Below are positions 37,980 to 44,470 of a stretch of DNA of 64,000 nt, in pieces. Every line of letters starts with the position of its first letter. Within the stretch, counting starts at the first letter, position 1. The stretch is from an uncultured Planctomycetaceae bacterium (GTDB lineage Bacteria > Planctomycetota > Planctomycetia > Planctomycetales > Planctomycetaceae), in contig CAWFGE010000007.1 in assembly GCA_963815195.1 (NCBI GenBank), positions 1 to 64,000 of the forward strand. Direction: 5' to 3'. A program made the translations under genes and the position numbers. Under the pieces are notes generated by a model that was not told the DNA's origin, searched no databases, and saw only the letters and a program-made list of their open reading frames with translations.

Positions 37980-38890
37980 TTGCCCCAATCCATCCACAGG
38001 GACTGACCCGCGAACACATTTGCAAGCACTTGCCGACTTGGATACCGGCGCGAACCATCCGTTCGGCCAGCCCACCGGCTACGAATTGGTACACGACGGA
38101 AAGCGTTACGCCCCAAAGGCCGTGATCGGTTTGGCCTGCTGGGGCGGATTTTGGAACCGCAGGAATTTCGCGGCGGTGAGGCCCCGGGCAGGCGAATTAC
38201 GTGCTGCGACATTTGGGATTCGCCGTCGTCCCCAAAGGCGAACAGCCAGACGACGAAGGCCAGGAATCGCGGCAACCCTGGTCCGAAGCCGAGGTCAATC
38301 TGCTGGTTGCGGATTACTTCGACATGCTGCGGGCCGAATTCTTGGGCCAATCCTACAATAAGGCCCAGCACCGAAGGACGCCGAGTCCCCAGCTAAATGG
38401 CCGATCGGACGGTTCCATTGAATTCAAGCACCAAAACGTGAGTGCGGTGCTGGTCGATCGCGGGCTGCCCTATATTGAAGGCTACAAACCGCGGAGCAAC
38501 GACCAGGGCCTTCTGGTCCAGGCCGTGGACGCGTACCTGGAAAATCATCCCGATTTTTCTTGACCAAATTGCCAACAGCCCAACGATCGATCCACCCGGC
38601 GTCCCCAAAATCATCAGCCCAAACCCTGACCAGATCATCGAACCGCCGCCCGAGCAGATTATCGCCCCGCAATTCGACGGCAAACCGTTGCTGTCCCGAC
38701 GTGGTCGGCGGATCGATTTCGCCCAACGGGATGCCGCGAACCGGAGGCTTGGGAAAATGGGTGAGGAATTTGTCGTGCACCTGGAACGCCATCGCCTGCA
38801 GGCAATCGGCCGGGACGATCTGGCCCTGCGGGTCGAATGGGTCGCCCAGACCATTGGCGATGGGCTGGGCTTCGACATATTGTCTTTCAA
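37980..38890 (+). pseudogene. Putative restriction nuclease (McrA-like N-terminal head + DUF3883), truncated by the CRISPR array
   Basis: DGKRYAPKAVIGLA; WSEAEV..YFDML..SIEFKHQNVSAVL; LGKMGEEFV..GDGLGFDILSF, then repeat sequence in place of the expected EVK motif. Confidence 0.8.
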
Positions 38891-39265
38891 CGGGGCCGCG
38901 GTCATTCAACCGCGGAAACGCCATCTGTTGGCCGGCCGCAACACGCCAACCCTCTCCGCTTCAATGGGGCCGCGGTCATTCAACCGCGGAAACGGTACCT
39001 ATGGTCTCGTACCCTTGGACGCTACCGGAGTAGCTTCAATGGGGCCGCGGTCATTCAACCGCGGAAACTGCCTAACGAACAAATCCCAGGAGTCCAGACA
39101 CGCGCTTCAATGGGGCCGCGGTCATTCAACCGCGGAAACCCGGATACTCATAGTCAAAAGCAAGCTCCTGCTCGGTCGCTTCAATGGGGCCGCGGTCATT
39201 CAACCGCGGAAACAAGGAACTGTTGAAATGCCTCCGACGCAAACCGCGGCTTCAATGGGGCCGCG
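38884..39265 (-). CRISPR. Orphan CRISPR array with a type I-G(I-U)-like repeat: 5 full repeats, 1 half repeat, 5 spacers
   Basis: GCTTCAATGGGGCCGCGGTCATTCAACCGCGGAAAC (36 bp) starts at 38884 (3 mismatches), 38958, 39033, 39104, 39178 and 39249 (17 bp only). Spacers 38, 39, 35, 38, 35 bp. The minus strand ends in ATTGAAGC. Confidence 0.97.
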
Positions 39266-39390
39266 TGGAGATCGGCGTGCAATTGGGACCCACTTCGGGG
39301 GCAGGATCGGCGCGGAAAATGGACCCACCGTAGAAAACTTCGCATGCTACAGGATTGGAGGAGTCTGGTCCTGTTTCAGCGGAGGAGAGG

Positions 39391-40920
39391 ATGCTCACGG
39401 TGGACGATTATGCACGGATTCGTTGGGCTTATCGCGATGGCATGAGCCTCAGGGAAATTGAGAGAACATTTCATCACTCGCGAAAAAAGATTCGTGAGGT
39501 CTTGCGAGGCGCGGGCGAGCCGACGCCTTACGGCGGCAGCAAGCGGCTCCCCAATTGGGACGGTTTCACGATCGCATCCTGGAGATTCTCAAAGAGGATG
39601 AATCCGCGCCGCCCAAGCAGCGGCATACGCGGATGCGGATCTTCGAGCGGATCCGGGACGAAGACGGATACACGGGCGGCTATGATGCCGTGCGGCGGTT
39701 CGTGAACCGGCATCGGAAAAACCATGCTGAGACGTTCATCCCGTTGGATCATCGGCCCGGCCAGCGAATCGAAGCCGACTTTGGCGAGATTTCGGTGGAC
39801 TTCCCCGACGGTCGCCGGAAGGTCAACGTGCTGATCCTGGTCTGGTCGTACTCCAACCTTCCGTTCGCGGTGGCGCTGCCGACGCAGCGAACCGAAGCGA
39901 TCTTGGAGGGCATGACGCAGGCGTTTGATTTTTTCGGGTGTGTGCCGGAAGAAGTCTGGTGGGACAATCCGAAGACGGTGGCCGAGACGCTGTTGGCGGG
40001 GCGGTCGCGGAAGATCAACCCACGTTATCAAGCGCTCGCCAGTCACTATGTTTTCGATCCGCTGTTCTGCATGCCTGCGCGGGGCAATGAAAAGCCGGTG
40101 GTGGAAAACCGCGTGAAGACGTTGGAGCGGAAATGGTCCACGCCCGTGCCTCGGGTGAAGGATATGGAAGAGTTCAATGCTTATCTTCGCGAGTGCTGTT
40201 TGAAGGAACACGATCGCTGCAGCAGCGGCCAGACGCAAACGATTGGGGAGCGCTTTGCGGAGGAAAAACAGCGATCCGCTCCGCTTCCGGGGCCGCGGTT
40301 TGATCCCTGCATCCGGCAATCGGCGAAGGTCAACAAGTATCAGTTCGCGCGGTTCGACAACGTGAACTACAGCGTGCCTCGCCACGCCGCGTTTCAAACG
40401 GTGACGGTCAAAGGCTATGTGGATCGCGTCGAGATTGTGCTGAACGAAACCGTCATCGCCGTCCATAAACGGAGCTATCAGGCGGGCGAGGATGTGCTGG
40501 ATCCTTTGCACTATTTGACCACATTAACGCGTCGCCCGGCGGCTTTGGATCATGCGAACGTGTATCGCGATTGGAAGCTGCCCGCCGTGTTCGGCGAACT
40601 CCGCGAGCGTTTGGAAAGGCGGCACGGTCCCCACGCGGGCGTGCGGCAATTCGTGCGGGTGCTGCAGTTGCTGGCCGAGCATCCGCTCTCGCGCGTGCAG
40701 GCGGCGATCGAGCAACTTCGCGGCCCCGAAGGAGCCGATGCCGATCGCATCATTCGCCGCGTGGAAGCCTCCGCCCTCCGCCTGTCGGAAACATCGTCCG
40801 AGGGCATTTCCACTCCGATCGAGTGCGAACACCCCGGCGTGTTGTCGGTTCAAGTTCCCTGTCCGAGCTTGAGCCATTTTGACCAGTTCCTGTCCTCCTT
40901 CCAAGGAGATTCCGATTATG
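39391..40920 (+). CDS. istA: IS21 transposase (frameshift near 39540; end approximate, frame stays open to 41387)
   Basis: GMSLREIERTF HTH; PGQRIEADFG; WWDNPKT; RGNEKPVVENRV; NYSVP. Confidence 0.92.
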
Positions 40921-41276
40921 TCCCCGAACCCGAAACACGATGCCAACCAGATGCTCCTCAAGGCCAACCTCAAGCAACTCCGGCTGCCGACAATCCTGGC
41001 CGAGTACGAGAAGTTGGCCCGCGAAGCGAGTGCCTCGAACCAGACCTTCGAGCAGTACCTGCTCCGGTTGACCGAACTGGAGGTCGCGGCCCGGCAGACC
41101 AATGCCTTGAACAGCCGGATCCGCAATGCGAACTTTCCGGTGGAGAAGGGACTGGAGGATTACGACTTCCAAGCGGTGCCCGGCCTCCACAAACAAACGA
41201 TTTTGGAGTTGGCCCGCGGGGAGTGGATTGCCCAGCATTTCAATGTGTGTTTTCTCGGCCAACCGGGGACGGGAAA

Positions 41277-41677
41277 GGTCCGACCATCACAAGACACCTC
41301 TGGTCACTCAGTTATCGCGCGGTGAGATCACCGTCATCGATCCGGCCCATCCGCTTTATGGCCGAACATTTGATTTGTTCGGCTTAGCCCGCCTGCCAGG
41401 TTATCGTCAGTATTATCAAGTCGAGATTTTTCCTGACGAGATGACCTACATCGACGTCAGCAGCACGAACCTTTCCACCGCTCCTCCCCAAAAAACTTCC
41501 TGTCTGACCCTGGACGCGCTCCAGGATTTGGTGACTACCTTTCGGGATATTCTTTCTCGGAGGGAAGCCGATGTCACCCATTGCCACGGACCAGGTGTGG
41601 AACCGTCTGACTCTTCCAGAGCAGCAGCGGATCATCCAGCAAATCGTCGTCATTCTAACGGAGGAACTGGAGCATGA
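41277..41677 (+). CDS. Element ORF A; no ATG ahead of its protein-like N-terminal region in the integrated state
   Basis: SDHHKTPL..ITVIDPAHPLYGRTF..YIDVSSTNL..LTLDALQDLV. Stop overlaps the recombinase ATG (ATGA). Confidence 0.7.
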
Positions 41678-41855
41678 ACGGATCGATGAAAGTCAGCACC
41701 AGCCATTTGAATCGCCGCGGGATCGTATATCTTCGTCAGAGCACGACGAAGCAGGTCGAGAAAAACCAAGAGAGTGCCCACAACCAGCGAGCCTTGAAAA
41801 CCCGGTTGTTGGAGTTGGGGTGGAAGCCGGAACAAGTCAGCATCCTGGAGGATGA
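41571..41855 (+). CDS. Element ORF B, small helical protein overlapping ORF A and the recombinase
   Basis: RBS GGAGGG; MSPIATDQVWNRLTLPEQQRIIQQIVVILTEE. Confidence 0.55.
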   Translation: MSPIATDQVWNRLTLPEQQRIIQQIVVILTEELEHERIDESQHQPFESPRDRISSSEHDEAGREKPRECPQPASLENPVVGVGVEAGTSQHPGG

Positions 41856-43749
41856 TCAAGGGCAATCGGCCACGCAAACGGCGGGACGCGGGGCCTTTCA
41901 ACAGATGGTCGCCGACGTCGGCTTGGGTAAGGTCGGCATCATTCTGGGCTATGAAGTTTCACGGCTTTCCCGCAACGATGTGGATTGGCATCGACTGTTG
42001 GAATTGTGTGCGATCTTTGACACACTCATCGGTGATGTGGATGGGTTGTATCATCCACGGGATTTCAACGACAGGCTCCTCTTAGGCTTGAAGGGCACGA
42101 TGTCTTCGGCAGACTCCATAGCCTCCGATTGCGATTGGACGCGGGTCGATTGTCGAAGGCCGCGCGGGGCGAGTTGGTGCAAAACTTGCCGACGGGCTTG
42201 GTCCGCAATCTGGACAAGACGGTGATGCTCGATCCCGATCTGAGCATTCAAAAGCGATTGCATTTGGTGTTCGACAAGTTCGTGGAGTTGGGCACGATTC
42301 AAAAAGTCTTGACGTTCCTGGCCAAGAAAAATTTGAAGATTCCCCGGCGCCAAGTTTCGGGCCTTTATGCGGGCGAAGTGTTTTGGAGAGAAGCCACGGC
42401 CGCTTCGTTGGGCTCGATCCTGCATAACCCGGCTTATGCAGGCGCGTTTGCTCATGGGCGTCGGCAAGTCGATCCCACGCTACGAATTCCCGGTCGTCCT
42501 GCCACGGGTCGCACGCGCCGGCCCCAAGCGGAATGGTCGGTCTTAATTCCCGGCATCTACCCGGCCTATATCAGTTGGGAGCAGTACGAAGACAACCAAC
42601 GCCGAATCGCTCAAAACAACCTCCGCATCCAACAACGACTCGCCGCCAAGCAAGCCATCCGCAACGGCTGCGCGTTGTTAACGGGCTTATTGCGCTGCGG
42701 AAAATGCGGTCGAACGATGGGAGTGAATTACAAGGAGAACCGCTTTCAATACTCATGCAATTCTGGCTATCGGCATTACGCCCAACGATCCTGCCAGTAC
42801 TTGGGCGGCAACAAGATCGACGAGGCGGTGACGGAAGCTTTCTTTGAAGTGCTGCGGCCTGCCGAGATCGATGTGTTGGAGAAACTCTCCGCCGAAAGGG
42901 CTCGCACGCATGCGGACGTGGTTCGGCATTTGGAGCAAGACGTCGGGCGACTTGCAATACGCCGCCCATCGGGCCGAGCAACAATACGACTGTGTCGATC
43001 CCAAGAACCGTTTGATTGCGGCCAGTCTGGAAGAGAAATGGGAATCGGCTTTGTTGGCGCAAAAGCAAGCCGAAGAAAACCTGGCGGATGCCCGCCGAGA
43101 AATTCCCCAACCGATCCGCGTACCGAAGTCCTTGCGAGACGCCTTCGCGGATGTCGGGCGGCAGCTTCCCGAACTCTGGCCCGAGTTGTCTTGGGAGGCG
43201 AAGAAGTCGTTGTTGCGGACGATGATTACGGGAGTCAATCTTCACCGGCAATCGGATGGGCTGGTGCAAATTCGCATGGTCTGGGCCGGCGGTTCGGTGA
43301 CCGAAACGTCGGCTCTCCTACGGCGTTTTTCAATGAAACACACGGACTTGGAAGAGCACATCGTGGAACGCATCCGGCAAGAAACCAGCGAAGGCCGGTC
43401 GAGTGAAATGATCGCGGCGGATCTCAATCGCGAAGGCCATCATCCCTGTCGTGGCGAACAATTCACCTCGCAAATCGTGAACAAGTTAAGACATCGCTAC
43501 CGGATCAAAAGCCCGCGTGCAAAGAACCTGCCCCATGCCTGGACCGCCGCGGAAATGGCTCAGGAAATCGGGCACAACATATCCTGGATGTATCATAAAA
43601 TTGAGCAAAGACAGATCGTGGTTTCTGTCGATCCAACTTATCGGTGCTATCTGTTTCCCAAAACTGAGGAGGTTAAAGACGCCATGCTAAAACTCAAAAA
43701 TCACGAAACCGAGCAAATCACTATCCCAAGGGGGCACAACAATGGCTGA
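41674..43749 (+). CDS. Large serine recombinase (2 frameshifts)
   Basis: IVYLRQST catalytic Ser; EVSRLSRN; RLLLGLKGTMS; ILHNPAYAG; zinc ribbon LLRCGKCGRTM..YSC..SCQ; coiled coil VDPKNRLIA..LEEKWE. Confidence 0.93.
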
Positions 43750-44470
43750 GTCAAAACTCATATCAGCATTGGATTGGGCCTGGCCGCGTGCCGAGCGGGT
43801 TATAAGACCAAGTTCTTCACCGCCGCGGCTTTGGTGAATCGCCTGGAAGAAGCTCAGAAACATTACACCTTGGAGCGGTTGTTGAGCCAACTCGACAAGC
43901 TCGATTTGTTGATCGTGGATGAACTGGGTTACTTGTCGTTCAACCGGTCGGGAGCAGAGTTGTTGTTCCAGGTCTTCGCGGATCGCTACGAACGCAAGAG
44001 CCTGCTGATCACGAGCAACCTGGCCTTTAGCGATTGGGGGCAAATCTTCCAAGGCGAACGCATGACCGCGGCATTACTGGACCGCATCACGCACCATTGC
44101 CACATCTTCGAGATGAACGGCGAAAGCTACCGCTTCAAACAGTCGATGAAAGACAAAAAAGCGTCCGAAAACAAGAAGCCGAAAACCCGCTAAGTCGGCT
44201 CCGACGACGCCCGTCTTTCCTTCCCAACCTGCCCCATTCCACATCATTCCCCACCCCAGGTGGGTCCCATTTCCGCGCCGAAGTGGGTCCCAATTGCACG
44301 CCGATCTCCAGGCGTTGGAATGACTTAAAAACAAGGGGATTTGAAGCGGTTACGCTCTCGCTTCGTTCATACTCGCATTGTATTCATGTGGGGGTGATAT
44401 GGCCACGGGTGTTACCAAATTGTTACCAAAGTTTGAGATTCCACCGGACCAATGTCGCCGCTGGCATCCT

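Follow-up and report, generated by a model that had tools for sequence, protein, structure and literature searches.

Inspection of a 64,000-nucleotide stretch of DNA from an uncultured Planctomycetaceae bacterium (here called the window) pointed to a mobile element whose integration separates one of its own genes from the gene's start. The element, a 2478-bp insert in an istB gene, carries ORF A, ORF B and a large serine recombinase (LSR), and as read from the sequence, integration leaves the Shine-Dalgarno (SD) site and start codon of ORF A at the right end of the element and the body of the gene at the left. ORF A is very probably translated only where the two ends have been joined, in the excised circle or at a head-to-tail joint. 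The split layout was kept by relatives from several bacterial phyla and, judging from comparison of these sequences, is real, conserved and probably functional.

The element, its ends and the crossover point

The features of the window (coordinates, strand, description) were assigned as follows:

39262..44314, + strand: host IS21-family element with 37-bp terminal inverted repeats
40918..41276, + strand: 5' part of the interrupted IS21 istB (target); removal of the insert restores IstB
41275..41276, no strand: attL core AA, the first two bases of the IstB Walker-A lysine codon, from comparison of copies
41277..43754, + strand: LSR mini-element, a 2478-bp circle with one copy of the AA core if excised, delimited by the copies in genome G000 and by the restoration of IstB
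41277..41677, + strand: ORF A body, covering residues 5-137 in the circle form; the low-complexity tail overlaps ORF B and ends on the LSR start
41571..41855, + strand: ORF B, with its own SD site; only the first 36-40 residues are conserved
41674..43749, + strand: LSR (Resolvase, Recombinase and Zn ribbon domains), 691 aa in intact copies, with two frameshifts here
43728..43754, + strand: SD site (43728-43734), ATG (43742) and codons 1-4 of ORF A, overlapping the LSR stop and the left arm of attP
43753..43754, no strand: attR core dinucleotide AA, from comparison of copies
43755..44193, + strand: 3' part of the interrupted IS21 istB (target); removal of the insert restores IstB

In silico deletion of 41277-43754 produced a 265-aa IstB containing GQPGTGKTH as well as a 2478-bp circle, in which the joined ends encoded, in a single frame across the rebuilt attP, the 137-aa ORF A with an SD site that had been predicted. 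Coordinates were rechecked for the other sequence elements on which the original prediction was built, and all of these were found as described: the SD-like AAGGGGG lies at 43728-43734, followed by the ATG at 43742 and the LSR stop at 43747-43749, and the ORF A stop (41675-41677) overlaps the LSR ATG at 41674 in the sequence ATGA. In the integrated state the ATG at 43742 opens an out-of-frame peptide of 31 aa, the short product that had been anticipated. In the window, no stop interrupts the ORF A frame upstream as far as an ATG at 41126, which lies in istB DNA and has a weak SD site (-3.3 kcal/mol, versus -9.8 kcal/mol for the ATG at 43742), and the one internal ATG of ORF A, at 41441, lies past a conserved HP motif and has no SD site. 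A scan of the integrated form for promoter hexamers returned no site on the coding strand.

The window sequence by itself is compatible with several cut points, and the choice between these was made from other copies. Genome G000 contains nine copies of the element (eight near full length and one partial), which are inserted in three different istB genes, always after bases 1-2 of the Walker-A lysine codon. Since only AA is common to both ends of these copies when the three istB flanks on each side are compared, and since contigs from an independent run diverge from the element at 41275 and 43754, the crossover was settled at the shared AA, where it had been proposed. As for other elements moved by LSRs, the core comprised 2 bp, and no further target duplication was seen at any of the three targets. 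Several of the G000 copies, located on C7, C12, C15 and C16, have left and right flanks from different istB types, as a result of either misassembly or recombination between copies. A second family of LSR elements, 2601 bp in length and with about 34% LSR identity, was present at G000:C21:190-2790 and also on C14, C16, C18 and C19; it has the same split ORF A layout and uses another motif of the same istB type, so that one istB carries two LSR elements. The circle junction was found neither in the assembly, the contigs of four runs and the sequences behind 132 right ends, nor in viral contigs searched with one degenerate pattern, and such searches cannot show absence. In the window copy, the host istA (39355-41387) is apparently frameshifted near both ends, and a short CRISPR array (38883-39265; 36-bp repeat, 5-6 copies) abuts the left inverted repeat of the IS21 element. 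The repeat of this array also adjoins the element copy on C15, and occurs once on C22.

The ORF A frame and start across element families

A total of 157 loci with a related LSR were gathered from GTDB genomes, metagenomes and plasmids, of which 115 were full-length with flanks and formed 56 families at 85% DNA identity. Using one profile, ORF A was identified upstream of the LSR in 48 of the families (one match being weak) and not in the other eight; L102, L103, L112 and L022 are related LSRs without a detectable upstream ORF A. Where an element interrupts a gene, the frame across attP follows from restoring the frame of that gene, wherever exactly the cut lies. For 21 families the phase was set automatically by an intact target homologue matching both flanks, and for 15 the junction was placed by hand, from several copies or a target protein read across, a procedure that was not blind to frame and is weaker for L017, L026, L068 and L069. 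In all 36 families the right end supplies a start codon, ATG or GTG, that reads into ORF A in frame without an intervening stop, and two further families, settled by empty sites in their own genomes, were likewise in frame. The frame across rebuilt attP sites of homologous elements was thus non-random, as expected from the original prediction, with 38 of 38 placeable families in frame.

Both ends were present but the junction was not placed for L014, L032 and L059, and seven families had no usable left flank. At the right end of L014 an SD-like run is not followed by an ATG, and a search for its empty site gave no result; this locus could be an exception to the right-end start layout. The automatic phase of L004 gave an out-of-frame best match, which was outvoted by four of six votes together with other copies. 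The loci L153-L158 (G351) had been a candidate exception, which was rejected when a DNA search found empty sites that placed them in frame. These six copies interrupt a non-coding repeat at a TTGACA-like box, where attL makes an in-frame stop before ORF A. A fixed rule was then applied to a held-out set of 28 new loci, of which 14 were passed over, 13 for want of an ORF A match and one because of a short flank, and one more had no target. Of the other 13, ten were in frame. Among the three that missed, two have an SD site and ATG in the right frame that were outscored, and the third has lost its right end. The LSRs of the families fall into 12 clusters at 55% identity and nine at 50%, spread over the whole tree, and since the families are kin, the layout reflects inheritance and not repeated invention.

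Starts were scored with an anti-SD motif, a spacing of 5-9 nt and a cut-off of -3.5 kcal/mol. An SD-backed start was present in the ORF A frame in 34 of the 36 families, as against eight and two for the other two frames, and the best-scoring start was strictly in the ORF A frame in 34, with one tie and one near-tie. These counts bear on an alternative in which the ATG is a by-product of the recombinase arm of attP, and ORF A is either never made or is produced by the integrated element from a start that is internal, leaderless or supplied by the host. The window ATG, at -11 relative to the core, does belong to the attP inverted repeat and mirrors a CAT at +11, which is a confound, and -11 and -14 were the commonest offsets; an ATG at -11 was, however, found in 15 of 36 left arms and at only four of 36 mirror positions. 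The offsets moreover span -8 to -38, so that the start is not merely an att-site motif, and starts at -23 to -38 lie outside the recombinase binding arm and have their own SD site. Among 19 right ends of the window clade, the ATG was present only at -38 in six, only at -11 in nine, at both positions in four and at neither in none, and an SD site accompanied the ATG in most of them (Fisher p 0.011, a value overstated by kinship). Production of ORF A from the integrated element would fit with a frame that is open to the flank ATG at 41126 in the window, and with the calling of ORF A homologues from flank or internal starts in databases. Against this, SD-backed starts in the flank before the next stop were found in 0 of 36 families, those inside the first 22 codons of ORF A in one of 36, and the ORF A frame was closed at most 15 codons from attL in 13 of 36, in one family by a stop that attL itself makes. 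A by-product ATG is accordingly regarded as very improbable, and gated translation of ORF A as the preferred reading. Three outcomes had been named that would speak against gating, and in each case the opposite was observed: the crossover is at AA, the frame is non-random, and homologues do not in general have an SD-backed internal start of their own. Two irregularities of the ends were recorded: in L068, L069, L026 and some W04 copies the two junctions disagree by a single base within the presumed core, and the right end of L028 carries a tandem duplication of about 126 bp that contains the SD site and the start.

Products of the element

The window ORF A and five close homologues gave no match above the cut-off to Pfam PF17342 (DUF5372), and homology to this domain was seen at the profile level, where one HMM united ORF A with genes annotated as DUF5372. 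PF17342 matched 12 of 36 rows of A1, and the top three Atlas clusters carry it at 0.93-0.95; altogether, ORF A-like proteins formed 4195 clusters at 50% identity. The database homologues open with unrelated, flank-derived sequence, and such arbitrary N-termini of DUF5372-like database proteins are explained by the start lying elsewhere. In the AlphaFold model of ORF A, a four-strand barrel is combined with a long helix (pLDDT 86), and the protein is predicted to be DUF5372-like, with an SH3/KOW-like barrel plus helix. Sequence searches gave no solved homologue, and structure searches gave neither a specific fold match (best Z 6.1) nor a Foldseek match at E<=0.001.

SH3/KOW-like barrels are frequent binders of proteins or nucleic acids, and the targets of the family are nearly all genes of other mobile elements. 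Both points are in keeping with an alternative in which ORF A serves the circle by other means (protection, segregation, packaging or transfer, or target capture on mobile elements) and has no part in directionality. An essential barrel is argued against by a clade in the window's class (L219, L220, L224, L228, L230, L231 and L232) that seemingly has the ORF A helix only and no barrel, and in which the same ends were found in three cases, partly by eye: an in-frame SD site and ATG at the right end were identified automatically in L224 and by eye in L219 and L228, and L232 is a weak case. Such a service outside directionality is considered quite unlikely, and a part of ORF A in the direction of recombination is taken up below.

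The LSR matched PF00239, PF07508 and PF13408 (Resolvase, Recombinase and Zn ribbon, respectively) above the cut-off. The frameshifts of the window copy, at about 42110-42113 and about 42950, are absent from three of seven complete copies and from a contig of run X1. The family is large, with 466 plasmid records that carry the LSR and a presence in 90 of 401 genomes of the window's class. ORF B matched no family, and the search against Rfam gave no match; ORF B is a candidate for the directionality factor.

The proposal that the circle is a closed ring of translationally coupled genes was borne out in part. Among 28 three-gene families, the ORF A stop lies at most 8 nt from the LSR start in 24, and the ORF A tail is open through ORF B to the LSR start in 24, with the LSR frame open over this region in eight. 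The LSR start and ORF B, however, have SD sites of their own in the integrated element (-9.5 and -10.0 kcal/mol, respectively), so that coupling can only add to their translation, and the ring was to this extent overstated. Furthermore, coupling cannot be general, since in eight five-gene families (for example, pNGR234a) the split is kept and a gap of about 900 nt separates the end of ORF A from the LSR.

Proposed mechanism, related systems and targets

It is established that LSR elements move through a circle and that excision needs a directionality factor (PMC12286644). In the mechanism proposed here, an element the size of an insertion sequence moves by LSR recombination via a circle and targets conserved coding motifs of other mobile elements, here the IstB Walker A. 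The attP site lies inside the 5' end of ORF A, and joining of the ends, as the sequence shows, restores the SD site, start and body in frame. More tentatively, translation of ORF A may then tip the circle towards re-integration by two routes: ribosomes on ORF A would cross the ORF B start and terminate at the LSR start, which would raise the ratio of LSR to ORF B, and the ORF A protein itself may be an integration cofactor. After integration the switch would be off again. We lean, by a little, towards the view that translation of ORF A, or its product, marks the circle and favours re-integration rather than excision. ORF A would be a poor excision factor, being off when excision must start, and ORF B, which is translatable in the integrated element, would be the likelier one; among the roles that had been suggested for ORF A (directionality, re-integration or replication), excision thus appears the least likely. 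A circuit of two cofactors set solely by the state of the DNA, with ORF B acting in excision and the DUF5372-like product in integration, and with attP as a translational switch, is conceivable and is put forward with some reserve.

ORF A could also be gated in the same way and nevertheless act as a directionality factor or as a block to re-integration, thereby driving the excision of other copies, after a first circle has formed, or keeping the circle free. Directionality factors, which are small and unrelated proteins, bind to either the coiled coil or DBD2 of the integrase, as described in the available part of PMC12286644; ORF A is likewise small and, in the 48 of 56 families, always located beside the LSR, and the nine copies in G000 could respond in trans. 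ORF A would, however, be absent at the first excision, for which ORF B is translatable, and a 2.5-kb circle without a replication gene would presumably gain little by staying excised. This possibility is therefore held to be unlikely, and a role of ORF A on the side of re-integration remains the preferred reading.

Several known systems tie expression to the state of recombination, and the comparisons made here refer to those parts of the cited papers that were available. Circle-specific boosts of integrases are known at the promoter level (PMC13023037), and in Tn4451/Tn4453 (with the LSR TnpX), ICEclc and ICEKp1 the junction forms or brings in a promoter (PMC13023037, which cites Lyras and Rood 2000). 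Tn4451 is comparable in being a small LSR element with a circle and with expression that is turned on by end-joining (PMC13023037), but in this group the junction supplies a recombinase promoter, whereas here it supplies the ribosome binding site (RBS), start and first codons of an accessory gene. Mycobacteriophage BPs also has attP within a coding sequence (repressor gene 33), and the protein depends on the recombination state; there, attP sits close to the 3' end, and the protein becomes active on integration through the loss of a degradation tag (PMC4557955), whereas here the 5' end is affected, integration removes translation initiation, and attP falls in codons 4-5 of a non-HTH protein. 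In the 'suicidal' archaeal integrases of the SSV type, the element's own attP splits a gene that is whole only in the circle, but there a tyrosine integrase is itself split mid-gene (PMC8371274), whereas the LSR described here is a serine enzyme that stays whole and stops 5 nt short of the core, and it is an accessory gene that is cut, at a cost of 3-13 N-terminal codons. As far as these parts go, none of the three (junction promoters, the BPs attP, archaeal integrases) moves an RBS and start codon. The multi-targeting LSRs of Durrant et al. are similar in that one LSR uses several attB sites around a dinucleotide core, but their clade is marked by DUF4368, for which no match was obtained here, and no gene spanning attP is described in the available part of that paper (PMC10083194).

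A DUF5372/HTH/small ORF/recombinase element on Sinorhizobium fredii pNGR234a has an LSR 38.6% identical, the DUF5372 gene at the left end, and an SD site and ATG (at -11) at the right end that are in frame with DUF5372 across the rebuilt attP. It differs in its length of 3.3 kb and its two extra genes, and its record starts DUF5372 at an internal GTG. We take this element to be NGRIS-4 or ISRsp2, with genes y4bA-y4bD; no paper on it was found in the literature searched. The split-start layout is not described in the available parts of PMC10083194 or PMC11187229, and no published description was found in a search that was thin on subscription journals, ISfinder and supplements (the LSR tables of PMC10083194 may list members).

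Gating of translation initiation would add a further route by which an element senses its state, beside junction promoters and attP cuts at the 3' end or in the middle of a gene, and one that is kept across a large family. It would also name two small candidate cofactors for LSRs with relaxed targets, whose directionality could be tested in a 2.5-kb system. If true, the elements would form a widespread class, so far little described, of LSR elements parasitic on other mobile elements, and a first function would be assigned to DUF5372.

Almost every target of the family (loci L009-L158) is a conserved motif within a gene of some other mobile element, several of the targets having been named by eye from motifs. 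The targets include istB, istA, tnpB and tnpC of IS66, cores of the IS3/IS481 type, a group II intron reverse transcriptase, RAYT-like and IS91-like transposases and other LSR genes, together with one dctP gene and two non-coding repeats. As the insertions break the transposition genes of other elements, they may curb the spread of these.
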